From NCBI GenBank assembly GCA_044450345.1, contig JBIOIY010000004.1:1-64000 (forward strand): a stretch of 64,000 bases of DNA. The letters are read 5' to 3'. Shown here in pieces: positions 5,559 to 39,272 of the stretch (position 1 is the stretch's first letter; every line of letters begins with the position of its first letter). Position numbers and translations under genes: made by a program. This DNA comes from Thermodesulfovibrionales bacterium (GTDB lineage: Bacteria; Nitrospirota; Thermodesulfovibrionia; Thermodesulfovibrionales; UBA6898). The notes below the pieces were generated by a model. That model was not told the DNA's origin, did no database searches, and saw nothing but the letters and a program-made list of their open reading frames with translations.

Positions 5559-7703
5559 TTACATCGAATCGTTGACTTCGACATCGATATACACCACCCC
5601 GGTGCGAATCGTGAGCGGGACGAAGGCGCCGTTTGATTGCAGAGCATAGAATTCCAACCTGTGTCTGCCGGCTCCAAGGTCCTCGGCCGGCACGGCGATG
5701 TTCCAGCCTGAAAGCAGGAGGTTCCTGTTGGCCAGGGTTGTCGCGACATCTCTGCGTTGTATATTGATGGGAACGGCAGCGAAGGGCTTTCCGTTGTCGA
5801 GTACGACTACCCATTTTGCGGGCTTTTTCGCAACAGGATCATAGGCCCACCCTGTTGCATGTACTGCGCCGCGCAGAGAAATCACAGATGACGTTTCGCT
5901 CGGTTCGAAGATGTCGATATGTCCAGCCTGAAGATCCTTCATGACCAAAGATGAATCATAACGCGCCAATACGGCCTTCTCTTCAATGTCAGGAGAGGCT
6001 TTTCCATGAAACAGCGCACCCAAATACTCGGGCCTGTATAGGATGGCCTTGATATGTCCGGAAAGTGGTCTATTCACAATCTGTGACAAAGGGTTATAGC
6101 CCAGTGTCTCCCCAACGACACCTTGAATCAATGCCCTCGGCAATTTGGGCTGGAGAAGATACCGGTTCTCCTTAGGCGAATATTTTAACAGGATACTCTT
6201 GGCGATTGGTAGGAGTACGTCTTCATTTTCCTCACCTTTACAGATAAATATATCATCTCTAATCGTGCAGTCTGTTTTCCTGCCCTCTGACCACACAAAG
6301 ACCCTCGAGAATAGAGATGGATCCTCATAGAGATAGCTCATCCATGACTTCGCCAAGTAGTTTGCCGTTGTGGCCAGGTAGGACGACTGGGGCGGAACGA
6401 AAAGAATCAGTCGTGCGTCGGGTTTAAGCCCTGGTATCTGCTCGACTATAGAACGCAATTCAGACTGATGTTGCCTCCAGTACCCGAGGAAATAGTCCTG
6501 ACGCTCCAGCCCCCCGTAAATGCCGAGGGCGATAAAAAGCGTGGGCAAAACCAACGATGTATACTGACGACTTTTCAGTACGGACCGGCCAAGCCAGTAC
6601 GTCAACAATGCGACGGCCATTGAGGCCCATACCCGGGAAACCCAATGCGTGCGATAAAAAACCTCTGAAAACTGAACAGACGAGTAAATGGCATTCGAAC
6701 ACAAGGCCATCAGTAAGCAGATAATAAATACGACTGCCATACGACGTCCATCTTTCCGCGACCGCTCTTTAGTTTCAGACTGTCTGCGCCACAACCAGGC
6801 GGCCACAACCCCAAAAACAATGGCGCCAAACAGCGCAATCAAAAATTTAAATGAGAATGAGAGTATGGACGGCGGCGCAGGAAACCACTGTCGTCTGCCT
6901 ATCGCCCAATTCCAAGGCGTAAAATTATGCATGAACATAACGAGCGCGTTGAAGACTTTTCCCTTGAGCGGCAAAGGGCGCAGAGATACTGCTGCGTAGC
7001 TTTGGGGGCTCATCAAAAACAAAATGAAAACGATGAGGTAGGGAGCAAGCACAGCATACCAGAATGCTGTCAATTTCAGCAGTCGCTTGGAAATCCGGAA
7101 ATTGTCCAGCGCTAGGAGGAGCAGGGGGGTGAGCAGCACGGACGCAAACGCGGCGTCGTATGTCCAAACACTGCAACTTAACGCAATACCCGAGAGGATA
7201 AGCCATGGCCATCTATTCCCCTGCCACCATCGTATCAGACAGAGAAGCGAGAGAAAATAAAAGGTCGCTGAAAAAGCGATATGCATCGGGACAATGGAAT
7301 TGGTGAGGAAATCACTTGTAGCCGTGAGCGTTAACCCGCCCCCGAGATAAGCCAGCAGGCTCTGTTGGGGGAAAAGTCGTCGTAACAGCAGATATGCCAG
7401 GATTCCGGTGATGAACCAGTTAATCCCGTATAAAAGCTGCAGGGACAGGATCAAAGAGCCTGACCAGTGGGACAATGTATAGGGGACATTCTCCAACAGC
7501 CGCGTCGGGGTTACGCCCGGTGAAATCAGTTGCGCAACCGGGCTGTCAGAATGGACCTGAACCAAATAAAGGACCAGCAGTTCGTCCTGCCACATACCCC
7601 GATCCGGGGCAAACAATCCCCATACGAGCACCGTCAGCATCCCATATATACCGATAATGACGGCCCATTCACGTGTGGATTTGCGCGATATCGGATTTAT
7701 CAT
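5559..7703 (-). CDS. Multi-pass membrane protein, GT-C-type glycosyltransferase-like, with C-terminal Ig-like domain
   Basis: About 11-12 hydrophobic segments; acidic QDE in first loop; C-terminal GHID...GWAYDP...RRDVA beta domain. Confidence 0.55.
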   Translation of the reverse strand: MINPISRKSTREWAVIIGIYGMLTVLVWGLFAPDRGMWQDELLVLYLVQVHSDSPVAQLISPGVTPTRLLENVPYTLSHWSGSLILSLQLLYGINWFITGILAYLLLRRLFPQQSLLAYLGGGLTLTATSDFLTNSIVPMHIAFSATFYFLSLLCLIRWWQGNRWPWLILSGIALSCSVWTYDAAFASVLLTPLLLLALDNFRISKRLLKLTAFWYAVLAPYLIVFILFLMSPQSYAAVSLRPLPLKGKVFNALVMFMHNFTPWNWAIGRRQWFPAPPSILSFSFKFLIALFGAIVFGVVAAWLWRRQSETKERSRKDGRRMAVVFIICLLMALCSNAIYSSVQFSEVFYRTHWVSRVWASMAVALLTYWLGRSVLKSRQYTSLVLPTLFIALGIYGGLERQDYFLGYWRQHQSELRSIVEQIPGLKPDARLILFVPPQSSYLATTANYLAKSWMSYLYEDPSLFSRVFVWSEGRKTDCTIRDDIFICKGEENEDVLLPIAKSILLKYSPKENRYLLQPKLPRALIQGVVGETLGYNPLSQIVNRPLSGHIKAILYRPEYLGALFHGKASPDIEEKAVLARYDSSLVMKDLQAGHIDIFEPSETSSVISLRGAVHATGWAYDPVAKKPAKWVVVLDNGKPFAAVPINIQRRDVATTLANRNLLLSGWNIAVPAEDLGAGRHRLEFYALQSNGAFVPLTIRTGVVYIDVEVNDSM

Positions 7704-28132: not shown

Positions 28133-28873
28133 TTAAGAAGTGGCCTTCAGATATTCTTTTGTGACCTCTTGAGGGTCTCCGCACATCCTGGGCGAGCCAC
28201 GGTGCATCCATAAGACACTGTTGCAAAGTTTCCTGACGTCTTCCATGGTGTGAGAGACGAAAAGCATCGTGACCCCCTTTTCTCTGAAGCGTGAGATCCT
28301 TTCCTTGCACTTCTTCTTGAAATGTTCGTCACCGACAGCCAGGATCTCGTCGATGATGAGTACCGCCGGATCGACTTCGGTCGCGATCGAAAAACCGAGT
28401 CTCGCGATCATCCCTGAGGAATATGTCTTCAGCGGGCTGTAAATAAAACCGCTGAGCTCGGAAAAATCCACGATCGCTTTAAACTTGTTGTCGATCTCCT
28501 TTTTCGAGAGTCCGAGGATCGAAGCATTGAGGTATATGTTTTCGGAGCCGGTGAGTTCCATGTCAAAACCTGCGCCGAGCTCTATGAGAGGGGCGATTTT
28601 GCCGCTCACGAAAACGCTCCCCGTTATAGGCTTCAGCACGCGGGCCACGACCTTCAGGAGCGTGCTTTTCCCCGCGCCGTTTGCGCCGATGATTCCGAGC
28701 GTCTCCCCTTTGCCGACCTCGAAGTTCACGTCCTTCAACGCCCAGAAATCCTCATAATCGGTCTTCCTGCCTTTTAGTTTCTGTATGAGAAATTCCTGAA
28801 GCGTCTTCGGTTTTTCCCTGGAAAGACGGTAGCGGACAGAGACGCCGGCAACGCGTATTGAAAGCTCACTCAT
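28133..28873 (-). CDS. wzt: Polysaccharide ABC exporter ATP-binding subunit, without C-terminal carbohydrate-binding module
   Basis: FWALKDV, G.NGAGKST Walker A, YSSGM.ARLGF signature, IIDE.LAVGD. Confidence 0.92.
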   Translation of the reverse strand: MSELSIRVAGVSVRYRLSREKPKTLQEFLIQKLKGRKTDYEDFWALKDVNFEVGKGETLGIIGANGAGKSTLLKVVARVLKPITGSVFVSGKIAPLIELGAGFDMELTGSENIYLNASILGLSKKEIDNKFKAIVDFSELSGFIYSPLKTYSSGMIARLGFSIATEVDPAVLIIDEILAVGDEHFKKKCKERISRFREKGVTMLFVSHTMEDVRKLCNSVLWMHRGSPRMCGDPQEVTKEYLKATS

Positions 28874-28909
28874 TCCGAAGAACCGCAGGTGACATGTCTC
28901 TGCCCATGA

Positions 28910-29695
28910 TCACAGATGGTAAACCACCCTGTCTTTATATCTGTCGTAAATAAACCAGCCGGCAGACAACGCGACGAGGGAACACAAAAATGCATAGAGG
29001 AGTTTTTCATAAAAAAAAGGGACATCCATGTATAAGACACCCCTGAAGATACTTATAAAATAGTACATGGGGTTCAGCTGGAAGATGATCCTGAATTTTT
29101 CAGGGACTATCGACTCAGGGAAAAACACAGGGGTCATATACATCCAGGCGAGCAGGCCGACTTCATAAATATAAATCGTATCATGGAAAAAAACAGTCAG
29201 CGTCGAGAGGATGAGCGAAACGCCGACGCAAAAAAGCCCTGCCATGATGACCACCAGCGGAAGCATGACGATATGGCCGTGCATCGGGGTGCCGGTCAGA
29301 TAAAAGATGAGGAAGAGCGGGACAAGGGAGAAGACGAAATTAACAACGGCGGACATCACTACGGACAGCGGGAAAATGGCCTTCGGGAGATATATCTTCT
29401 TGATAAGATTGCTGTTGGTCAGAAGGCTTTTGAGAGCCGAAGAAGTGCTCTGCGAGAAGAAGTTCCACAGGATGATTCCCGAAAGCAGGTAGGAGGTATA
29501 GTTCTTGGTAGCGACCTTGAAGATCTCGGAAAAAACCATGTTGAGAATGAGCATCATGAACAACGGGTTGAGCATGACCCAGAGGAACCCGAGAACAGAC
29601 CTCTTGTAGCGCACCTTAATGTCCCGCATAACCAGATTTCTCAGGAGTTCCTTATATCTGAGGATGTCGAATATTTCGTTATTATACATTGCCAT
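28910..29695 (-). CDS. wzm: Polysaccharide ABC exporter permease
   Basis: RDIKVRYK.SVLG.LW..LNP, TPVFFP, NP motif, about 6 TM helices. Confidence 0.92.
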   Translation of the reverse strand: MAMYNNEIFDILRYKELLRNLVMRDIKVRYKRSVLGFLWVMLNPLFMMLILNMVFSEIFKVATKNYTSYLLSGIILWNFFSQSTSSALKSLLTNSNLIKKIYLPKAIFPLSVVMSAVVNFVFSLVPLFLIFYLTGTPMHGHIVMLPLVVIMAGLFCVGVSLILSTLTVFFHDTIYIYEVGLLAWMYMTPVFFPESIVPEKFRIIFQLNPMYYFISIFRGVLYMDVPFFYEKLLYAFLCSLVALSAGWFIYDRYKDRVVYHL

Positions 29696-29855
29696 TGCCG
29701 TGCCCCGGTTTGATATTATACAGCATCCGCCCCGTCTTCTTCACTAATGTCCCTACGTCTCTAAAACGGTGAAACCCTTCCCCCGGCTGTGCTAAACTCT
29801 TACATGGTTCAAGAGTCCGGACTGATTTTAATTGCAATGAAAAGGACCTGAACAA

Positions 29856-30959
29856 TTGAAGATAGGCGTCAATGCAACATTCCTTGGCGAAAAACCGACC
29901 GGGTTAGGGGTTTTCACACAAGAGATATCACGGTATCTTTCGGCCGTGAGCAGGGATTTTGTGGTATTTTCATCTGCTGCGCTTGAGGGGGTTCCCGAGG
30001 ATTTCGTCTATAGAGTCCCTCCTTCGATCAGGGGCTCCCTAAGATTCCGCGATAACCTCCTGCGGTTTGTGTACCTGAACCTTCGTCTGCCCTTGCTCTG
30101 CCGGAACAAAAAGATAGACGTCCTGTTTTGTCCGATGATAGAGTTCCCGTTCTTACCCCTTGTCCCGCTTGTTGTGCATATCCATGACCTGCACCCGATA
30201 CTGTTTTCAGCCCAGTTCAGGCGTGCCGCCGCCCACTTCAGATATTCACTGAAAAGGCTGGAGAAAGTCGCCGGGAGAGTGACCGTCTCGTCCGCGGCCG
30301 TGAAGAAAGAACTCCTTGCAGCTACAGGAATAAGGGAAGAGATAATCGATGTGGTCCCCCTTGCCTATAGCCGGGACCGGTTTTATCCGCAAGGACCCGA
30401 GGGAAGAAATGTTTTTTTCAAAAAATATTCGCTGAGGGGACGTTACATTCTCACCGTGGGAAATCTCTTCCCCTATAAAAATATCGACAGTCTGGTGGAA
30501 GCGTTTCTCACAATCAAGGATAAGGTCCCCCATTCACTCGTTATCGTCGGAAGAAAGGAGTATGCAGCCGGGCGGCCGTTGAATGACGAGAGGATACTGT
30601 ATACCGACTATGTGCCGGACGAAGACCTGCCTAAGTTTTATTCTTATGCCGACCTTCTCGTGCATCCCTCCCTGAGCGAGGGCTTCGGACTTACGCCTCT
30701 GGAGGCAATGGCCTGCGGCACCCCCGTCATTTCATCCACCGGGGGCTCCCTTAAAGAGGTCATAGGGGATTCGGGGATGTTCTTTGAGCCTGCTGATACC
30801 GGCTCTATGGGGCGGCTGATCGTCAGGGTATTAGGTGACGAGGGCCTGCGAAAGCGTCTGGTCGAAAAAGGATTTGCACAGACACTGAAATTCTCTTGGG
30901 AAAAAACCGCAGCCGGGATTATGGAGTCGTGCAGGAAGGCGCTGGAAGAGAAACAATGA
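29856..30959 (+). CDS. GT4 glycosyltransferase
   Basis: TGLG, IHDL, KN...L, PSLSEGFGLTPLEAMACGTPVI, FSWEK. Confidence 0.9.
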   Translation: MKIGVNATFLGEKPTGLGVFTQEISRYLSAVSRDFVVFSSAALEGVPEDFVYRVPPSIRGSLRFRDNLLRFVYLNLRLPLLCRNKKIDVLFCPMIEFPFLPLVPLVVHIHDLHPILFSAQFRRAAAHFRYSLKRLEKVAGRVTVSSAAVKKELLAATGIREEIIDVVPLAYSRDRFYPQGPEGRNVFFKKYSLRGRYILTVGNLFPYKNIDSLVEAFLTIKDKVPHSLVIVGRKEYAAGRPLNDERILYTDYVPDEDLPKFYSYADLLVHPSLSEGFGLTPLEAMACGTPVISSTGGSLKEVIGDSGMFFEPADTGSMGRLIVRVLGDEGLRKRLVEKGFAQTLKFSWEKTAAGIMESCRKALEEKQ

Positions 30960-32080
30960 AGATACTCCATATACTTTATGAAAGTAAGGGTGACTATTTT
31001 GGGATCGGCGGCGTGGGCATGCGTGCATACGAGATTTACCGGTATTTGAAGGAACGCCACGACATCACCCTCCTCTGCAAGAGATATCCGGGCGCCAAAG
31101 ACCGGGAGATAGACGGCTTGAGGCATATCTTTGCCGGCGCTGAGAGCGGGAACCTGACAAGGACTCTCCTGTCTTATGCCTTGAATTCGGCCCTTTTCGT
31201 GAAAAGAGAAGGGGAAAAGTTCGATGTTATCGTCGAGGAGTTTTCCCCTGCCGTCCCTGCCTTCCTCAATTTTTACAAAAAAAGACCTGTAGTGCTGCAG
31301 ATCCAGGGGTATACCGGGACAAAATATTTCGGAAAATACAACCCGTTATACTCTGCCGTTCTATATGCCCTCGAAAGGCTGAGGCCTTCATTCTACAGAA
31401 ATGTCTTGCTCGTATCGGACGTCACGCGGCAGAGGTACTCGCTGCATGGAGACCACACCTCTGTCGGGATGATACCCAACGGCATATCCCGGGAACTCCT
31501 CGGCTGCACGCCGGAAAAATCGGACTATGTTCTTTTTATGGGCAGGATAGACATCCACCATAAGGGGCTTGATGTTCTTCTCGATGCCTATAGAGAGTTC
31601 TCTCCCTTTTTCCCCGGAATAAGGCTGGCTGTTGCGGGAGACGGCAGGGACATGGAAAAATTCCGGGAGAGACTGATGAAGCTTCCCGGCCCCGTAAGGG
31701 AAAAGATAGAACTGCTCGGATGGGTCTTGGGGGATGAGAAGAAGGAGGCATTGCGCAAGGCACTGTTCGTGGTCTTCCCTTCACGGTATGAGGTGCAGCC
31801 CATATCTGTTCTTGAGGCGATGGCGTGCGGCAAGGCGGTAGTGGTGAGCGATATCCCCGAATGCTCTTTTGTCACGCAAAACGGAGCGGGGGTCGCCTTC
31901 AAATCAGGAGACCCGGCCTCGCTTGCCGTCTCGATGAAAGGGCTCGCAGCGAGCGCCGGCCTCGGCGAAATGGGGCTGAAGGGAAGGGAATGGGTCAAGG
32001 ATTTCACCTGGGACAGGATCGCCGAACAATATGAAGATTTCCTCCTGAAGGCAGTGCAGCGGCAAGGCCGTTTTCTGTGA
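30956..32080 (+). CDS. GT4 glycosyltransferase
   Basis: ATGA overlap with previous gene; IPNGI, GRI..HHKG.D, PSRYE...SVLEAMACGK. Confidence 0.9.
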   Translation: MKILHILYESKGDYFGIGGVGMRAYEIYRYLKERHDITLLCKRYPGAKDREIDGLRHIFAGAESGNLTRTLLSYALNSALFVKREGEKFDVIVEEFSPAVPAFLNFYKKRPVVLQIQGYTGTKYFGKYNPLYSAVLYALERLRPSFYRNVLLVSDVTRQRYSLHGDHTSVGMIPNGISRELLGCTPEKSDYVLFMGRIDIHHKGLDVLLDAYREFSPFFPGIRLAVAGDGRDMEKFRERLMKLPGPVREKIELLGWVLGDEKKEALRKALFVVFPSRYEVQPISVLEAMACGKAVVVSDIPECSFVTQNGAGVAFKSGDPASLAVSMKGLAASAGLGEMGLKGREWVKDFTWDRIAEQYEDFLLKAVQRQGRFL

Positions 32081-32090
32081 TGAGATGTCC

Positions 32091-33296
32091 TTATTCTGTG
32101 TAGATTATCGCTTTGATCTTCTCCTCATCTCTCAACTTGGCAGCCAATTTCACTGATTCCTTCCTGTCTTCTGACTTTCCGATCAACACCCGGTAGAGAG
32201 TCCCGTTGTCCTTACCGGTGCCTTTGCTCATGAAGGTATCGTATCCCTTGGCTTTAAATTGTTTAGCGAGCGCTGCGGCATTACTTTCACTTTTGAACAC
32301 GCCGAGCTGGACGGAATAGGTCTTCTTCCCGGCTGTTTTCGAAGAGGACTTTTCCGGGGAGGCTGCGGGCGCCGGTACAGGCACCTGCTCCTTCTTTGCG
32401 GCTGTTGAGGGTGCCGCCCTTTGGGCCGGGGCCGGAGGCGAAGGGACCGCCTTACTTTCAATGACGGGTTGCTGTTTCTGCTGTTCATTTGACGGGGTGG
32501 GTGACTCGGCGGGGGATTGAGCAGGCGAAGGAGAAGGCGCAGGAGCGGGTGCTTCGGCCTTCGGCCTTGCTGCCGTACTCATGGGTTTCACGGAGACGGA
32601 TTTTTTTGTTCCGGTGTAAAAGAGGAAACCTGCAATACCGGCTATCACGATGACCAGACCGGCAGCAACGACAGGGGAATTGCTTTTCTTTTTCCTGCGA
32701 GGCGTTCCCTCTTTAGGAGAGGCATCGTAAGAAAAGTCAGGAGCGATCTCCCGAGTCGGCCCGCCAGTACTTTCCCGCTCTTCATCGAACTCAGGTATCC
32801 CGGACATTTCAGGGGCCTCAAGCCGGGCGCCTTTGCCCTGCTGTGTGGCAGGAGCATTTAAAAAATCAGGCGTGCCACTCTCTTCTTTTTTGGGCACCCG
32901 CTCTTTTTCCTTGACGTGCAGCACGATGGGGGCCTTTGTAGAGAGGACCTTCACTGTTTTTTCAAGTAGCTTACCCGGAGTGCAGGGGACATCCAGAAAA
33001 TCGGCGACCCCGAAAGAAGCAACGTCGCGCAAGTCAATGCCGCTGGAGGGAGAGGTCAGCAAGATGATAGGGACCTTTTGCAGCGACTCGAACTCGTGGA
33101 TCGTTTTGCAGATTTCAAGCCCTGTTTCATCAGGATTTATGAATATGAGCGAGGGGCTGACTTTCTGCGCCATTTCCGTGCCGACGTCGCCGCCGGGGAC
33201 TGCAAAAACAAGATATCCTTCCGATTCAAGAGTCGACGCGATGAGCTGCTCTGTTTCGCTGTCTGCGTCGATTACAAGGATTGTTTTGCTTGCCAT
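32091..33296 (-). CDS. Bitopic membrane protein: degenerate receiver domain + TM + Pro/Ala linker + SPOR domain
   Basis: KTILVID...PSLIFIN...VPIILLT receiver fold; RRKKK then TM PVVAAGLVIVIAGIAGFLFY; YSVQLGVF....NA...LYRVLIG SPOR. Confidence 0.85.
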   Translation of the reverse strand: MASKTILVIDADSETEQLIASTLESEGYLVFAVPGGDVGTEMAQKVSPSLIFINPDETGLEICKTIHEFESLQKVPIILLTSPSSGIDLRDVASFGVADFLDVPCTPGKLLEKTVKVLSTKAPIVLHVKEKERVPKKEESGTPDFLNAPATQQGKGARLEAPEMSGIPEFDEERESTGGPTREIAPDFSYDASPKEGTPRRKKKSNSPVVAAGLVIVIAGIAGFLFYTGTKKSVSVKPMSTAARPKAEAPAPAPSPSPAQSPAESPTPSNEQQKQQPVIESKAVPSPPAPAQRAAPSTAAKKEQVPVPAPAASPEKSSSKTAGKKTYSVQLGVFKSESNAAALAKQFKAKGYDTFMSKGTGKDNGTLYRVLIGKSEDRKESVKLAAKLRDEEKIKAIIYTE

Positions 33297-33337
33297 GGTA
33301 AATCCCCCTTCAACTGGTTATCGGTATTCAGAGGGCC

Positions 33338-34366
33338 TCAAAGAGGTTCCCAATACTTGGAAGGCATATCTTGCGCGAGTTTGAGCGCGCCGTTTGATCC
33401 GGCAAACAGGGGCTCTTCGACGCATGATACCCTGCAGGGGCCGTATTCTTTCAGGGCGTCCTGGAGATATTCGCGGAGACCCCTTATAAGGCTGCCGCCG
33501 CCCGCCAGGACGATGTTGTTCTTTATCCTGACCTGGAATTCAGGATCGAACCGCGCGATCATCTCGGTCGTGGTCTCGGTGAGCGCCGGGAGAATGCTTT
33601 CGCAGGCCCTTTTGATCTCGTTCTTGATATCGTGCATGACCGGCTTGCCGTCGACGGGTATCTCCACCAGGACCTCTTCGGCCGTGTTTCCTACAAAACT
33701 GTATTTTTCTTTGAACAGACGCACCATGTTCTTGTTGAACTTCGAGTTCGGATACTTCTCGCTCAGATAACTGAAGAGCTGGTCGTCGATGTAATCCCCT
33801 GCGTTCAGTATGGTCTTCTGGTCTTCCTCGGCAGGGATCGCCCCGTGCATGATGCAGAAATCCGTTGTGCCGGCCCCTATATCGATTACGAGCGAGTTGT
33901 TCAAAAGGTTCATACCGTATGCGACCGCAAAGGGTTCGGTCACGACCATCAGGGCGTGGACGAATTCGGTCACGGCCTTTCTGATGGCGAGCTTGTTCAC
34001 CTTCAGGGTGTCGGCGGGCACGCCTACCACGGCGTGGATCTTCTGTTCCGGGTCAGGGCCTGCGAGCTCGATGAGGTGTTTTATGATCTCTTTCACGGCC
34101 TCTTCATTTTTGTCGATACCCTCCTTTATCACGCCGTGCTCAAGAGGCCTGCAGACGTCGAGGGAAAGCCTGTTCTGCAGGGCCTCGGCGCCGAACAGCA
34201 CCGGCTTGCCGACCACCTGCATCGAGATAAAGTCCTTGGGCCATCCCACGAAACTCTCGATCCACTCCCTCTTGCTGTTGCTTGCGGAGATGGCGCTCCT
34301 CGATGTACCGAGGTCGATCCCGACGAACAGGATATTATCTTTTTTCTGCGGATCCGTTTGCCTCAT
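33338..34366 (-). CDS. mamK: MamK-family actin-like ATPase (MamK-like; no magnetosome role shown)
   Basis: GIDLGTS, VGWPKD, AVVGVPA, EPFAVAYG, DIGAGTTD, LAGGGS, GAL.LA..MP..YW; motif order matches Magnetospirillum MamK as recalled, not MreB/FtsA. Confidence 0.8.
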   Translation of the reverse strand: MRQTDPQKKDNILFVGIDLGTSRSAISASNSKREWIESFVGWPKDFISMQVVGKPVLFGAEALQNRLSLDVCRPLEHGVIKEGIDKNEEAVKEIIKHLIELAGPDPEQKIHAVVGVPADTLKVNKLAIRKAVTEFVHALMVVTEPFAVAYGMNLLNNSLVIDIGAGTTDFCIMHGAIPAEEDQKTILNAGDYIDDQLFSYLSEKYPNSKFNKNMVRLFKEKYSFVGNTAEEVLVEIPVDGKPVMHDIKNEIKRACESILPALTETTTEMIARFDPEFQVRIKNNIVLAGGGSLIRGLREYLQDALKEYGPCRVSCVEEPLFAGSNGALKLAQDMPSKYWEPL

Positions 34367-35384
34367 AACTCAGTTCTCCTTTATTTAGGTAATCCAGTAT
34401 CCCGGCCTCAAGATAATGGGCGATGTTCTCTCTGTGCCCCGGGGTGTTGAGCAGCTGTTCCTCCTCCTTGTTGCTGAGACAGGAGACCTCCGCCAGCACT
34501 GCCGGGATGTCCACCCCGAGCAGGACAACGAAGGGCGCCCTCTTGACCCCGAAATCATACGCGTTTCCGTTGTCTTTCTTGAAGTTCAGGAAAAGCTTTT
34601 TCTGTATCGAATATGCGAGGCCTCTGGACTCCTGCGTCTTCAGCCTCTCGCCCAGTTTCTCGATGATCTCCTTGAAATCGCTCAGGCCGTACTGGGAACC
34701 GGCGTTCTCCTGCTCCGCAAGACGCTGGGTGCCGGTGTCGGAAGAGGGGCCGAAGTAATAGGTCTCGATTATGTTGATCGGCTTGTGAGGAAGATAATTA
34801 AGATGGATGGATATGAAGAGGTCCGTCTTCTTCGACATTGCGAGATCGACCCTCTTGTTGAGGGGCATGGTGACGTCCTGGTCGCGGGTCATCAGCACAT
34901 TAAAACGGCCGTACTTGTCGAGGCGGTCTTTCAGCCTTTTTGCGATATCCAGGGTGATGTCCTTCTCCAGCGTGCCCATTATTCCCTTTGTGCCGGAGTC
35001 TGCGCCGCCGTGTCCTGCGTCTATCATGATCGTTTTTACCCCTAAGCCGAAGGTGCGGCTGACGGACATATCGGGGTTGGTGATAAAGGCCCTGTAATCG
35101 GCCGCGTTTGCCTTGGGGCTCTGAGGAGGGGCCATGTGCTTTATCTCGCCTGCGGTCAACTGCCTCTCCGAAAGGAAGGAGTTGGAGACATAAGACCCGT
35201 GGACGAGGATCGCGACCGTCGAAATGAGCAGGGTCAGAAAAAACTTATTGAGAACAAAATGTTTTGAACGGGATACGGCCCAGTCGCCTTTGCCGATGAT
35301 CCTCAGGTTCTCTTCATAAACCCCCCTCAGCATCTCCTGCTTTATCCTGAGGTCGGTCCTTTTCCGCGAAAAAATAGAGATCAT
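34335..35384 (-). CDS. N-acetylmuramoyl-L-alanine amidase (Amidase_3) with N-terminal membrane anchor
   Basis: Zn and catalytic residues IDAGHGG, EKDITL, ISIHLN, LAEVS; AEQENA helix; hydrophobic FFLTLLISTVAILV near residue 50; 32-bp overlap with the actin gene. Confidence 0.9.
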   Translation of the reverse strand: MISIFSRKRTDLRIKQEMLRGVYEENLRIIGKGDWAVSRSKHFVLNKFFLTLLISTVAILVHGSYVSNSFLSERQLTAGEIKHMAPPQSPKANAADYRAFITNPDMSVSRTFGLGVKTIMIDAGHGGADSGTKGIMGTLEKDITLDIAKRLKDRLDKYGRFNVLMTRDQDVTMPLNKRVDLAMSKKTDLFISIHLNYLPHKPINIIETYYFGPSSDTGTQRLAEQENAGSQYGLSDFKEIIEKLGERLKTQESRGLAYSIQKKLFLNFKKDNGNAYDFGVKRAPFVVLLGVDIPAVLAEVSCLSNKEEEQLLNTPGHRENIAHYLEAGILDYLNKGELSYEANGSAEKR

Positions 35385-35396
35385 AACGTTAGCATC

Positions 35397-35425
35397 ACTT
35401 TACCAATTTGCGGGAAAAAATTCAA
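35397..35425 (-). promoter_or_regulatory. Sigma70-type promoter of the amidase-actin-SPOR operon
   Basis: TTGAAT-N17-TAAAGT with extended TG, 12 nt upstream of the amidase ATG. Confidence 0.65.
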
Positions 35426-35651
35426 TGGAATACCTTTGCGGTAAAAGGTTTTTCGGCCCGATCAGGGCTTTCTGATCATCATCGAAAAGTAAGAAATATT
35501 CTCGACAAACGGGCGTGACACTTATGACACTTTATTGGCGGGGCCTCTTTTTGCCCGCCAGCGGGTTTAGAAGCTGCGCGTCCCTTGTAGAATTCGTCGC
35601 CCTTCAGTGTCCGCAGGGTAAGAGGAATCAGCAGGCGAGTTTCATCACTGC

Positions 35652-36671
35652 CTACCCGTGCAGAAACTTGCTGATTTTTGCGGTAAAGAATTCCCTGCTG
35701 CAGATAGAGGTTATCAAACTATAGAGGTCTCCATTGCTCACTTTCCTAATGCGCATTACGGCCTTTCTCTTCTTCAACATCTTCGGCAGCAGCCTGAGTG
35801 CATCGAGTTTCGCCCTAACGTAGAGCTTTAGTCTCCCGTGCCTGACGACGAAAAAAAGAAATTCCAGGAGCGTCCCGAGAATATAGGCCGGAAGGCAGCG
35901 GATGAAGACCCACGAAGGGATGTTCTTCATTCTGGTCAGTTCACTGTTTCTCAATGAATAAAACACCGCGGTATCACTCATGTTTCCGATCGTGGAGCGG
36001 ACTTTGTGATGAACAACGGCTGAAGGGACGTACTTCACCTTCCAGCCGGCCAACTGCGCCCTCAAATTGAAATCGGCGTCTTCGTAAATCAAGAAAAAAT
36101 CCTCGTCCAGAAACCCGATCTCCTCGATCATTTTCCTCCTGTACATGGCAGCACCTGCACATGCACCGAATACATATTCGTTTTCATTATACAAGTGAGC
36201 AGGCTTGCCTTCGCCGCGCTTGAATCCTTTCAAATTAGACGAGAAGCCGTCTCCTGCGCTGTCAATCAAATCCGTGCCCGCAACGAGCATCTTCGTCGCG
36301 CAGATACCGACCGAGGTGTCTTTTTCCATCGCCGAGACAAGACCTGCAAGGCAGTCCTTGTCCGCTTCTACGTCATTGTTGAGGAGCATTATGAAACTGC
36401 CCTTGGCGTGCTTGATGCCCTCGTTGTTGGCGCCTGGGAAGCCTATGTTTGAGGGCAGCGCAACCACCTCGACTGCCGGGAAGTTTTCTCTAATATATTC
36501 TACTGAACCGTCAGCAGAGCCGTTGTCCACTGCAATTACCTCGATATCCTGAAGGGACTGGGCAAAGACGGACTCAAGGCAAAGCCGCAATAATTCCCGG
36601 CCGTTATAGTTGACGATGATTATCGAGATAAGCGGAAAACCCGTATATTTTTCTTTCTGAATAAATTTCAT
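35652..36671 (-). CDS. GT2 glycosyltransferase (rhamnosyltransferase-like)
   Basis: SIIIVNYNG, VDNGSADGS, N.GF..ANN.G, LLNND, DEDFFLIYEDAD. Confidence 0.88.
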   Translation of the reverse strand: MKFIQKEKYTGFPLISIIIVNYNGRELLRLCLESVFAQSLQDIEVIAVDNGSADGSVEYIRENFPAVEVVALPSNIGFPGANNEGIKHAKGSFIMLLNNDVEADKDCLAGLVSAMEKDTSVGICATKMLVAGTDLIDSAGDGFSSNLKGFKRGEGKPAHLYNENEYVFGACAGAAMYRRKMIEEIGFLDEDFFLIYEDADFNLRAQLAGWKVKYVPSAVVHHKVRSTIGNMSDTAVFYSLRNSELTRMKNIPSWVFIRCLPAYILGTLLEFLFFVVRHGRLKLYVRAKLDALRLLPKMLKKRKAVMRIRKVSNGDLYSLITSICSREFFTAKISKFLHG

Positions 36672-36678
36672 AAGTAGT

Positions 36679-37812
36679 TCACTGAATACTAAGGAGTGCA
36701 CCAAGGTATCTTTCGACAACCTCGAAGATCACAACGTCGGGTTTCTCCTGCTCAATCACCCGAAAATCCATCTTCGGTTTCCAAACATATACGCTCCTTG
36801 AGAAATTCTCTGACAGATACGGAATCAGCCCATCAGCAAAGGAATCTCTGAACATTACAAGCTTAGGCAGGCCTTTGTCGTTTGTCATTGCTCCCACAGT
36901 ATCGCATCCTGCCATTGATTCATAAGCTACCGGTATTGGTCTTGCCTCTTTCGCCATTTTGGGCTCAAGTATTATTTCCGGGTCGGTTATCGACCCCTGG
37001 ATGTTAATAAAGCCGGCCAGATCCGCTATGTCTCTGTTATTGCCTAGCCGGACAACAAAATCGGAGAGCTTCATTGGCGCCACTATGGGATAGAACGCTT
37101 TAACGTGCGTCATGATTTCTTCATATCCGAGGAAAGCGCCGAGATTGTTCCAGTGCGTGTCAGTTCGGTAATAAAGGGGATAAGAGTGAAGGCTTTTGTT
37201 TGACAGGAGTTTTTGGCGGAGATCGACAAGGTCTACGCCTGTCGCAATGAGACACTCGCTAACCTGGCCGATCCTGGTTATTTTGCCCCCCTTACGTGCT
37301 ACTGACAGAGGTAATTTTTCGGGATATATCGTGTGTTTGTTGGGTATTATCGCGACAATGAAATGAATTTTATTCGCCCGTAGCCGTTCATTCAGTTTTA
37401 TAATTTTATCTTTTATTTGCGCGAGTTCATCCGCAGTAAAGTTGGCTTCCCCGGCATAATCTTTCAGATTCACCCCGTCTTTAGGGTCGTCATAAAAGAG
37501 CCATTTGTCCTCTCCTATAACTACACGCTCTGTTGGTGAAGTGGCTGCCAGCCTGACATGCGACAGGCTGTTGAGTCTCACAAGGTAATTGCGAAAACCG
37601 AAGTGGTCATTGAAATACATTTCGTATTCTTTAGGGTAGCTCAGTACAGCACCAAGGCTGAAACGCTTCAGCACCGGTTTTTCGGAAAGAGTCCTGTTCT
37701 CAGTGCCTGGCTTCTCAGGAAATAGTGACAGGGTCATCTGTAGGAGCGGCAGCCACAGGATGATCATAAATAGTCCCCCGGCAAAAAGCGCACTTTTTTT
37801 AGAGATCTGCAT
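36679..37812 (-). CDS. AlgJ/AlgX-like SGNH O-acetyltransferase
   Basis: N-terminal TM, ENR.L, D.FGFR, P.K..IYPE, YYRTDTHWN..GA, RDSF, E.VER. Confidence 0.82.
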   Translation of the reverse strand: MQISKKSALFAGGLFMIILWLPLLQMTLSLFPEKPGTENRTLSEKPVLKRFSLGAVLSYPKEYEMYFNDHFGFRNYLVRLNSLSHVRLAATSPTERVVIGEDKWLFYDDPKDGVNLKDYAGEANFTADELAQIKDKIIKLNERLRANKIHFIVAIIPNKHTIYPEKLPLSVARKGGKITRIGQVSECLIATGVDLVDLRQKLLSNKSLHSYPLYYRTDTHWNNLGAFLGYEEIMTHVKAFYPIVAPMKLSDFVVRLGNNRDIADLAGFINIQGSITDPEIILEPKMAKEARPIPVAYESMAGCDTVGAMTNDKGLPKLVMFRDSFADGLIPYLSENFSRSVYVWKPKMDFRVIEQEKPDVVIFEVVERYLGALLSIQ

Positions 37813-37814
37813 CG

Positions 37815-39272
37815 TCAGAACCTGAAGTAAATGAACGGGTTATAAGTACCGCCGGACAGCAGGACTATGCAGGCCATGAGGACTGAAAAAAGCATCACGA
37901 GCCCTACGAAATCGTATGCAGTTGACATTATCGTTCCGCGCCCTTTTCCATTAACAGGCGTATTAGTGAGCGCAAGGACCATCCGGGCGACCGTGGGGGT
38001 GCTTCCGATCAGGCCGCATAAAATGACGACAACAGTCTTTACATTCAGCAGGTCGTTTATGGGGATACGTGTGGCGCTGCCGAATCCGAACATGACCTTG
38101 AGGTACTGCGCGGAGGCCACCACGGTCTCTGATCTGAAAAAGACCCAACCGATAAGCACAACCAGCAAGGTATAGCCGCGTCCCACCGGACTTGGTGCTG
38201 ATTCAATGAACCTGCCGAACCGCGTCCTCTCCAAGGACAGAAAAACGCCGTGCCACAGTCCCCATATGACAAAGGTCCAGCTTGCCCCATGCCACAGGCC
38301 ACAAAGAAAAAACACCACTAGGAGATTCAGATATGCCCTGTATGGCGAGACCCGGTTTCCGCCAAGTGGAATATACAGATAGTCCCTAAACCAGGTGGAC
38401 AAAGATATATGCCACCTCCTCCAGAATTCCCGTATCGAACGGGAGATGTAAGGGTAATTGAAGTTCTCTAGGAAATGAAAGCCGAACATTCTGCCGAGCC
38501 CGATAGCCATATCCGAATATCCGGAGAAGTCGAAATAGATCTGGAGGGCATAGCAGAGAGCGCCCAGCCAGGCAGCCCCAGGGGACAGGGCTGAAGAAGG
38601 GGTCCTGAAGATTTGGTCAGCCACGGAAGCGACTGTATTTGCGATAATCACTTTCTTGCCAAGGCCTATAATAAATCTCCGGACCCCGCTGAAAAAGAGT
38701 TCGGGAGCAATTACACGATCTGCTATCTGACCGGCGACATCTTTATAGCGGACGATCGGCCCGGCTATTAATTGCGGGAACAACGCCTTGTACATCGAGA
38801 AATTAATAAGGCTCCTTTGTGCCTTAACATCTCCCTTATAGACATCGATAACATACGAAAGCGCCTGAAAGGTGAAGAAGGAAATGCCTATTGGGAGATG
38901 GACTGAAGGGGCCTGGACCGCATGCCCGGCAAATCTGACGACCTGATTGATATTGCTTATTACGAAGTTAAAATACTTATAAAACACAAAGACCCCTAAA
39001 TTAAAGGACAAGGCTGCGATAAAGCCGGCTTTTGCCTTCCTGTCTCCCCCTGCTGTTCGGAGTTCTTTTTGTTTTTCGATGAATATCGCGAAGTAATAAT
39101 TGAAGACCATGTAGGCGACCATTACGAGCACATACTTGCCCTCTCCCCAAAAGTAAAAGACCAGGCTTGCGGCAAGAAGAAACATATTCCTCAGGTCTCT
39201 CCTGATGAGGAAATAACCCGACAGTACTATAGGCAGGAAGAAAAAAAGAAATATGACTGAACTAAACACCAT
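37815..39272 (-). CDS. MBOAT O-acyltransferase (AlgI/PatA/DltB family)
   Basis: MVFSS..FL, LPIGISFFTFQ, FPQLIAGPIVR, DFSGYSDMAIG, FWRRWHISLS.W, GLWHGA, NPFIYFRF. Confidence 0.93.
   Translation of the reverse strand: MVFSSVIFLFFFLPIVLSGYFLIRRDLRNMFLLAASLVFYFWGEGKYVLVMVAYMVFNYYFAIFIEKQKELRTAGGDRKAKAGFIAALSFNLGVFVFYKYFNFVISNINQVVRFAGHAVQAPSVHLPIGISFFTFQALSYVIDVYKGDVKAQRSLINFSMYKALFPQLIAGPIVRYKDVAGQIADRVIAPELFFSGVRRFIIGLGKKVIIANTVASVADQIFRTPSSALSPGAAWLGALCYALQIYFDFSGYSDMAIGLGRMFGFHFLENFNYPYISRSIREFWRRWHISLSTWFRDYLYIPLGGNRVSPYRAYLNLLVVFFLCGLWHGASWTFVIWGLWHGVFLSLERTRFGRFIESAPSPVGRGYTLLVVLIGWVFFRSETVVASAQYLKVMFGFGSATRIPINDLLNVKTVVVILCGLIGSTPTVARMVLALTNTPVNGKGRGTIMSTAYDFVGLVMLFSVLMACIVLLSGGTYNPFIYFRF

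Follow-up and report, generated by a model that had tools for sequence, protein, structure and literature searches.

The stretch of DNA that was analysed (the window, 64,000 nucleotides (nt) on contig C4 of a Thermodesulfovibrionales genome that comprises 3.19 Mb in 86 contigs and is 91% complete) carries on its minus strand three consecutive genes, which encode a peptidoglycan amidase, an actin of the MamK family and a protein having a receiver-like domain, a transmembrane (TM) helix and a SPOR domain. The amidase gene (34335..35384) encodes a bitopic protein of 349 amino acids (aa) with a cytoplasmic tail, a TM helix and a periplasmic Amidase_3 domain. The actin gene (33338..34366) encodes 342 aa and shares 32 nt (34335-34366) with the end of the amidase gene. 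The pseudo-receiver/TM/SPOR gene (32091..33296), which follows after a gap of 41 nt (33297-33337), encodes a further bitopic protein, of 401 aa, with the Pfam domains Response_reg and SPOR. An initial annotation of this locus had described three tightly packed minus-strand genes with this overlap and this gap, and the coordinates of the open reading frames (ORFs) agree with that description. As discussed below, it is the amidase-actin pair, kept in non-magnetic bacteria of several phylum labels, and not the trio, that is conserved as a unit.

The conservation of the pair was followed in two samples, one of 301 Nitrospirota genomes and a wider one with one genome per species, which was searched with the actin alignment and gave 267 relatives, of which the best 80 loci were fetched. 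The record titles of these 80 loci read Nitrospirota, Ca. Sulfobium, Rokubacteria/Methylomirabilota, Aminicenantes and Desulfobulbaceae, together with single alpha-, gamma- and Chloroflexota-labelled metagenome-assembled genomes (MAGs); it is noted that these phylum labels are bin labels of MAGs, some of which may be wrong. Close relatives of the window actin are found in Nitrospirota/Thermodesulfovibrionales MAGs. The amidase gene lies directly upstream and on the same strand in all 18 phylum genomes that have the amidase-linked type of actin, and upstream on the actin's strand in 78 of the 80 fetched loci, the remaining two having the actin at a contig edge, so that the pairing is found in 78 of the 78 testable loci. 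In 75 of these 78 loci the amidase reading frame ends beyond the actin start, and in the other three there are gaps of 1-19 nt, where both the overlap and the gap figures depend on the start-codon calls. When only the N-terminal 117 residues of the amidase are taken as the query, matches occur in 16 of the 301 genomes, once in each; every one of the 16 belongs to the 18 actin carriers, and the match lies on the actin's contig within about 2 kb, and no match occurs in the 283 genomes without the amidase-linked actin; in the two carriers missed by this query the amidase is present by full-length tblastn. Moreover, the pairwise identities of the actins and of the amidases are correlated with r = 0.90, a value reached by 0 of 999 permutations. 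Its recurrence in many genomes puts the arrangement far beyond chance, and the strict pairing together with the overlapping frames suggests a one-to-one partnership of the two proteins. As a separate observation, one Rokubacteria-labelled locus (L088:6001-7006) gives actin matches in two frames near the 3' end, which indicates a frameshift or an assembly error.

The amidase was described in the initial annotation as a membrane-anchored Amidase_3 protein with intact catalytic residues, which is borne out. Pfam places Amidase_3 at residues 119-329 (E 5.6e-42), among solved structures it is best matched by Bartonella AmiB (3ne8, 3e-30) and by Escherichia coli AmiC (4bin, 1e-27) and AmiA (8c2o, 7e-22), and a Foldseek search has AmiA, AmiC and 3ne8 at the top. 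Residues H125, E140, H194 and E299, which align to the GHGG, EKD, SIH and LxE motifs of AmiC and AmiB and correspond to the metal ligands and the catalytic Glu, are invariant across 43 aligned amidases, and this invariance argues for selection on the enzyme activity. The catalytic domain (codons 118-336, 34377..35033, minus strand) probably includes the insertion that serves AmiA/B/C as the regulatory segment: the alignments to AmiB, AmiC and AmiA cover residues 221-260, those to CwlV, LytH and CwlD end near 212-224, and within the AmiA/B/C-aligned segment the model has a helix at residues 234-244 with a block-mean predicted local distance difference test (pLDDT) of about 56-57. Against the AmiA, AmiB and AmiC equivalog models the protein scores 110, 81 and 102 bits, with cut-offs of 400, 532 and 700. 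By Pfam the AMIN domain is absent from the module amidase, and in its place there are the TM helix (codons 42-65 in the model, 35190..35261, minus strand; hydropathy peak at 43-61) and, before it, the cytoplasmic tail with a modelled helix at residues 4-29. The tail motif [IL]L[RK]G[VI]YE[ED]NL[RK]I.GK is conserved across the phylum labels, and in the 43 amidases, which cover several of these labels, N26 is invariant while L19, Y23 and L27 are each conserved in at least 90%.

The assignment of the actin to the MamK family, made in the initial annotation, also stands, with 418.7 bits against the NCBIfam model NF040964 (cut-off 400; 419.1 bits in the search of its own genome). The scores against the other family models lie below their cut-offs (BeeR, 232 bits versus 530; MreB, 88 versus 293), and among the solved structures MamK 5jyg is matched at E 3e-92 over residues 7-341, BeeR 8r2n at 3e-44 and MreB 1jce at 5e-15. 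The nucleotide-binding motifs of the actin fold are intact, with D18, G20, T21, D162, G164, G166, T167, D169, G289, G291 and S292 unchanged throughout 43 sequences, and the window actin has these motifs as well as the C-terminal DMPxxYW helix in common with MamK. Within the phylum sample the MamK model is matched in 28 of the 301 genomes, and these carriers fall into two groups. The first comprises 10 genomes with 11 genes, which score 447-473 bits, are 42-45% identical to the window actin and have no amidase or SPOR neighbour in their 1.5-kb flanks; the second comprises 18 genomes including the present one, which score 408-441 bits and are 64-86% identical. Among the 28 carriers the two actin types never occur together in one genome.

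A possible contact between the two proteins was addressed by complex prediction, in which the actin and the stretch 1-45 of the amidase were each given as an alignment of 43 rows. Three runs gave ipSAE (interaction prediction score from aligned errors) values of 0.81, 0.85 and 0.82 (median 0.82), with the best of 3 controls at 0.00, at least 89% of contacts in common and a partner pLDDT of at least 65. The predicted interface comprises tail residues 11, 14-15, 17-23, 25-27, 29-30 and 32, so that the predicted actin-binding site corresponds to the cytoplasmic helix motif LRGVYEENLRIIGK of amidase codons 11-32 (35289..35354, minus strand; alignment and model), and actin residues 113, 125-129, 139-142, 150, 155-156, 175-177 and 330-342, which, judged by fold position, line the cleft between subdomains IA and IIA and include the C-terminal helix. 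The contacting tail residues 19, 22, 23 and 26 take in conserved positions, and the candidate contacts are predicted between L19, Y23 and N26 of the tail and R129, M334 and Y338 of the actin. The prediction thus supports, as a model, the binding of the amidase tail to the actin cleft. The initial annotation had proposed a coupling of the cytoplasmic actin to the membrane proteins, and of this proposal the part that concerns the amidase N-terminus gains support from the median score of the three runs relative to that of the controls.

The third protein has the architecture that the initial annotation ascribed to it, namely a bitopic protein with a cytoplasmic receiver-like domain and a periplasmic SPOR domain. 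Response_reg is found at residues 6-113 (42.2 bits, cut-off 30.2) and SPOR at residues 324-399 (54 bits, cut-off 21; E 2.2e-14), and the model consists of the receiver (REC) domain at residues 1-120 (32937..33296, minus strand), a TM helix at 208-229 and the SPOR domain at 324-400 (32097..32327, minus strand), which are connected by disordered linkers, the periplasmic one being Pro-rich. The block-mean pLDDT is mostly above 90 for REC and SPOR, with 83-97 over REC, which has a (beta-alpha)5 fold, and at least 94 over residues 331-400 of the SPOR domain, which is modelled as beta-alpha-beta-beta-alpha-beta. The hydropathy peak lies at residues 209-227 with KKKS just before it, and the cytoplasmic part thus consists of a 120-residue receiver fold and an 80-residue linker. 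In alignment to YycF, N54 replaces the phospho-acceptor Asp and V103 replaces the conserved Lys; across 57 family members position 54 is N in 37, K in 10, D in 4, S in 4, A in 1 and Q in 1, and the conserved-Lys position is Lys in 29. As judged from these residues, the domain is a pseudo-receiver, and the non-phosphorylatable state of 53 of the 57 members would suit a binding module.

The gene for this protein is placed after the actin in 15 of the 18 sampled phylum genomes with the amidase-linked actin type and in 36 of the 80 loci by tblastn (41 by ORF clustering), with gaps to the actin of mostly 4-122 nt. In 39 of the 80 loci, each with at least 1300 nt of downstream sequence, no REC/SPOR gene was found by tblastn after the actin, and where the actins are most distant none follows the pair. 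The REC-TM-SPOR architecture is itself common (78 cluster representatives at E <1e-30), and orthologues are present in five genomes of the same order that have no amidase-actin pair (G235, G286, G184, G031 and G247); in a tree of REC and SPOR sequences, from which the G247 copy was left out, the copies of the other four interleave with the pair-linked ones. Since the orthologues occur without the pair, the SPOR protein is independent of it, and the claim that the three genes form a self-contained loop is only partly supported: the trio does recur, as the above counts indicate, while the pair is the invariant core and the third gene is separable. No other neighbour gene family is recurrent at the 80 loci, the next most frequent being present at 7.

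Several observations concern this third gene and the position after the actin. One genome without the pair, G184, has two tandem REC-TM-SPOR paralogues (L120:4760-6088 and 6100-7275). Two genomes that carry the pair, G272 and G190, have no adjacent third gene, and their only REC-SPOR gene, which is divergent, adjoins a Mur-ligase-family gene (L122:4416-7160 and L123:2537-5366), this neighbour being assigned by Pfam on the G272 copy and by sequence similarity in G190. In one Nitrospirota lineage the gene immediately behind the actin encodes a soluble REC-PilZ protein (L094:7036-7791, also L013), which hints that what recurs at this position is a receiver-type domain and not SPOR. At three Ca. 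Sulfobium-labelled loci only (L044:7280-7981, L050:1695-2465 and L051), the post-actin gene encodes a signal-peptide-like N-terminus followed by Ysc84/SYLF (PF04366, E about 1e-37), a domain named for yeast actin regulation. At the two Aminicenantes-labelled loci (L091:3820-4086 and L092:1249-2469) a Ser/Thr protein kinase gene lies 188 nt past the actin, as assigned by Pfam Pkinase in L092 and by eye in L091.

The surroundings of the trio in the window are those of a surface-polysaccharide locus (28133-32080 and 35652-39272), with two glycosyltransferase family 4 (GT4) genes, a GT2 gene, an AlgX/SGNH-like gene and an MBOAT acyltransferase gene by Pfam; in 28133-29695 two ORFs resemble, by eye, an ABC-2 exporter pair. 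The polysaccharide genes were considered as a part of the system and set aside, the family of the window's GT4 neighbour being present at 3 of the 80 loci and the context not being conserved with the module. The single sigma70-like promoter that the initial annotation had placed before the three genes is not upheld. The upstream intergenic region of 267 nt (35385..35651, minus strand) contains a weak promoter-like match only: the promoter scan found no minus-strand site matching at least 9 of 12 positions, and TTGAAT-17 nt-TAAAGT at 35425-35397, read by eye and ending 13 nt before the ATG, matches at 8 of 12, which is the chance level.

Based on the gene anatomy, its conservation, the co-occurrence of the two genes and the intact active-site residues, all of which are observed, we consider it fairly probable that the module is a filament-positioned or filament-regulated peptidoglycan amidase, in which the two genes form the working unit and a separable SPOR reader is added in Nitrospirota. 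The amidase would be a regulated enzyme of the AmiA/B/C type that has lost the usual periplasmic targeting domain and carries instead a TM anchor and, at its cytoplasmic N-terminus, a conserved helix. The MamK-family actin, co-translated with it, would polymerise in the cytoplasm and hold the amidase helix in its IA/IIA inter-subdomain cleft, as the in silico complex suggests. The filament would then set the location of the amidase in the envelope, and perhaps its activity too, so that the peptide stems would be stripped from the glycan strands at filament-defined sites. In the Thermodesulfovibrionales-type Nitrospirota the next gene would supply an FtsN-like SPOR protein with a pseudo-receiver, which probably reads the denuded glycan and reports to the cytoplasm, and which would also work without the pair. 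As to the cellular process that is served, we infer septation or local wall remodelling.

Several points weigh against this reading of a filament-directed amidase. Polymerisation, binding and localisation are predicted or inferred only, and the carriers found are MAGs throughout, without known cell biology; the 120 best relatives of the window actin, like those of a Desulfobulbaceae copy, include no named cultured carrier. The complex score expresses the confidence of a model, and its calibration, in which 116 of 157 solved complexes reached the ipSAE mark as against 2 of 215 mismatched pairs, is only rough for self-supplied alignments. The predicted actin contact residues are mostly also present in the Nitrospirota magnetosome MamK, with differences mainly at 126, 129, 139 and 141, and the cleft is thus a family feature and no dedicated site. 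ParM-like actins use the IA/IIA cleft in filament contacts; if the cleft serves such contacts here, the tail binding might be limited to monomers or filament ends. In the actin tree with MreB as the outgroup the amidase-linked clade has a weak support of 0.28. Finally, the same genome already has a separate AMIN-Amidase_3 protein (on contig C1), a third Amidase_3 protein, an MreB-like gene and three other SPOR proteins (a 226-aa bitopic one, an RlpA-like one and a TPR-SPOR one), and with these amidases and SPOR proteins present the module is extra to the ordinary wall machinery.

Other readings of the same locus can be compared with the above one. In the lineages that have the trio, a closed loop can be envisaged, in which the amidase would write denuded glycan, the SPOR domain would read it, the pseudo-receiver would tether or nucleate the filament and the filament would hold the amidase, giving a self-reinforcing trans-envelope patch. 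The recurrence of the third gene after the actin with short gaps, the topology, with REC cytoplasmic and SPOR periplasmic, the loss of the phospho-acceptor in nearly all receivers of the family and the established binding of SPOR domains to amidase-denuded glycan are all consistent with it. On the other hand, it has to account for the loci with sufficient downstream sequence, and those with the most distant actins, that have no REC/SPOR gene after the pair, for the lineage with soluble REC-PilZ at this position, for the five genomes having the orthologue without the pair, with four of their copies interleaving in the tree, and for the two genomes in which the pair and a REC-SPOR gene beside a Mur ligase gene are located apart, and we thus regard the closed loop as unlikely, although not negligibly so. 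A bolder proposal, on which we would put somewhat less weight still, is that the amidase-linked actins represent a widespread older form of MamK, which moves or places an amidase from the inside, that the magnetosome MamK was recruited later, and that the Nitrospirota pseudo-receiver/SPOR protein closes a feedback from the wall to the filament. In this older form the tail would bind the inter-subdomain cleft exposed on monomers and on one filament end, and would ride the filament ends like ParR/parC on ParM, with the enzyme carried on growing or treadmilling ends. The actin tree, in which no alphaproteobacterial MamK and no BeeR were included, gives no rooted order of the magnetosome MamK and the amidase-linked clade.

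The polarity could also be the reverse, with the amidase acting as a wall-fixed anchor for a MamK-type positioning filament whose actual cargo would be something else, for example the chromosome or an organelle such as a storage granule. The membership of the actin in the MamK family would fit this, given the role of MamK in organelle positioning, which is restated in one paper (PMC11929497), as would the predicted tail-binding cleft, which is largely common to the magnetosome MamK, and a periplasmic domain that binds peptidoglycan would keep the filament in a fixed place with respect to the sacculus. By contrast, the invariance of all four metal-binding and catalytic residues across the 43 sequences argues for selection on the enzyme activity, no conserved cargo or adaptor gene is present nearby at the 80 loci, and pairing this strict, with overlapping frames, speaks for proteins that partner each other one to one; a filament anchored in this way is accordingly held to be improbable. 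Lastly, the module could be a relic or spin-off of a magnetosome cluster, or a part of a phage, a defence system or another mobile element, as the MamK score above the cut-off, the differing flanks between genomes and weak PHROGs matches could indicate. It is noted, however, that the magnetosome-type MamK is the separate group described above, without an amidase neighbour and never co-occurring with the amidase-linked type, and that no Mam genes are found at the window locus by Pfam and neighbour families. The high-scoring MamK of G106 sits among MamM (388.7 bits, cut-off 350) and MamP-, MamB-, MamA-, MamQ- and MamE-like genes; when the 21 ORFs beside it were compared by tblastn with the 91% complete source genome, 16 gave no match and five matched generic families at 26-29% identity, and a magnetosome link was rejected. 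A defence origin was likewise rejected, with PADLOC giving no system match and the actin only weakly resembling PDC-M61B (E 5e-7). So was a phage origin, the PHROGs matches being generic (endolysin at 1.7e-25 for the amidase, partition/ParM-like at 7.8e-12 for the actin) and no integrase or phage gene family being recurrent at the 80 loci. An origin of this kind thus seems very improbable.

It is known that wall synthases are steered by MreB and by FtsA/FtsZ, while for the steering of hydrolases one module of a bactofilin and an M23 peptidase has been described. In the literature searched, with subscription-only papers and supplements lying outside the search, no description of a MamK-type actin arranged with an amidase was found, and relative to this literature an actin dedicated to a peptidoglycan amidase would be new. 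If the reading of a filament-directed amidase is true, it would give a function to many "orphan MamK" genes that bear MreB or MamK annotations in MAGs of several phylum labels, it would provide a new route for placing an autolysin from the cytoplasm and it would bear on the origin of the magnetosome actin. The 20-residue conserved tail motif and the predicted cleft contacts make it accessible to simple, falsifiable experiments.

Among the known systems, the division machinery of Escherichia coli has features that resemble those of the present module. FtsN couples to the actin-family protein FtsA, and SPOR domains bind glycan that has been denuded by amidases. As with FtsN-FtsA and AmiA/B/C, an actin-family protein would here be linked, through a bitopic protein, with events at the wall in the periplasm. 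The third protein shares the topology of FtsN, being bitopic with its N-terminus inside, a linker in the periplasm and SPOR at its C-terminus, but it scores 32.6 bits against the FtsN model TIGR02223 (cut-off 107.65) and has a cytoplasmic pseudo-receiver in place of the short FtsA-binding peptide. The catalytic domain of the amidase is nearest to those of AmiB, AmiC and AmiA; unlike AmiB and AmiC, which are exported and AMIN-targeted, the module amidase is membrane-anchored and has no AMIN domain, and unlike FtsA the module actin is of the MamK type.

MamK-like actins are reportedly present in non-magnetic bacteria also in the form of saltatorellin. The mamK-like gene of Thiomargarita was considered as the same module and rejected, since its neighbour is flotillin-like and an amidase is not mentioned in the paper. 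MamK itself (NF040964; PDB 5jyg, 5ljv) belongs to the same protein family as the window actin, with the difference that MamK is encoded in a magnetosome gene cluster while here the partner is a peptidoglycan amidase, in a genome in which no magnetosome genes were found. MamK is an organelle-positioning track, as is restated in PMC11929497, and the same paper describes BeeR of Verrucomicrobiota as a MamK-like actin outside the magnetotactic bacteria, of unknown function, and does not contain the word "amidase". Bbp of giant bacteria is, as described in PMC10580974, a further MamK-like actin of unknown function, with an operon consisting of the actin, a hypothetical protein and a Kelch-domain protein. 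The module was rejected as a Bbp system because of this different operon, the word "amidase" also being absent from that paper (PMC10580974).

A closer resemblance is found with BacA-LmdC of Hyphomonas neptunium and Rhodospirillum rubrum, in which (PMC10945521) the bactofilin gene is clustered with the gene of a bitopic M23 endopeptidase, LmdC; BacA binds a conserved motif in the cytoplasmic N-terminus of LmdC and recruits LmdC to a defined place. Compared with this description, the present module likewise has a polymer gene clustered with the gene of a bitopic wall hydrolase bearing a conserved cytoplasmic motif, in 78 of the 78 testable loci. It differs in that the polymer is a presumably ATP-dependent actin instead of a bactofilin and the enzyme an Amidase_3 protein instead of an M23 peptidase, and in that the motif is a predicted helix, unlike the beta-hairpin of BacA-LmdC, with the binding and the localisation being predicted only. 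On the basis of this analogy, the closest working analogue of the amidase-actin pair is the BacA-LmdC module.

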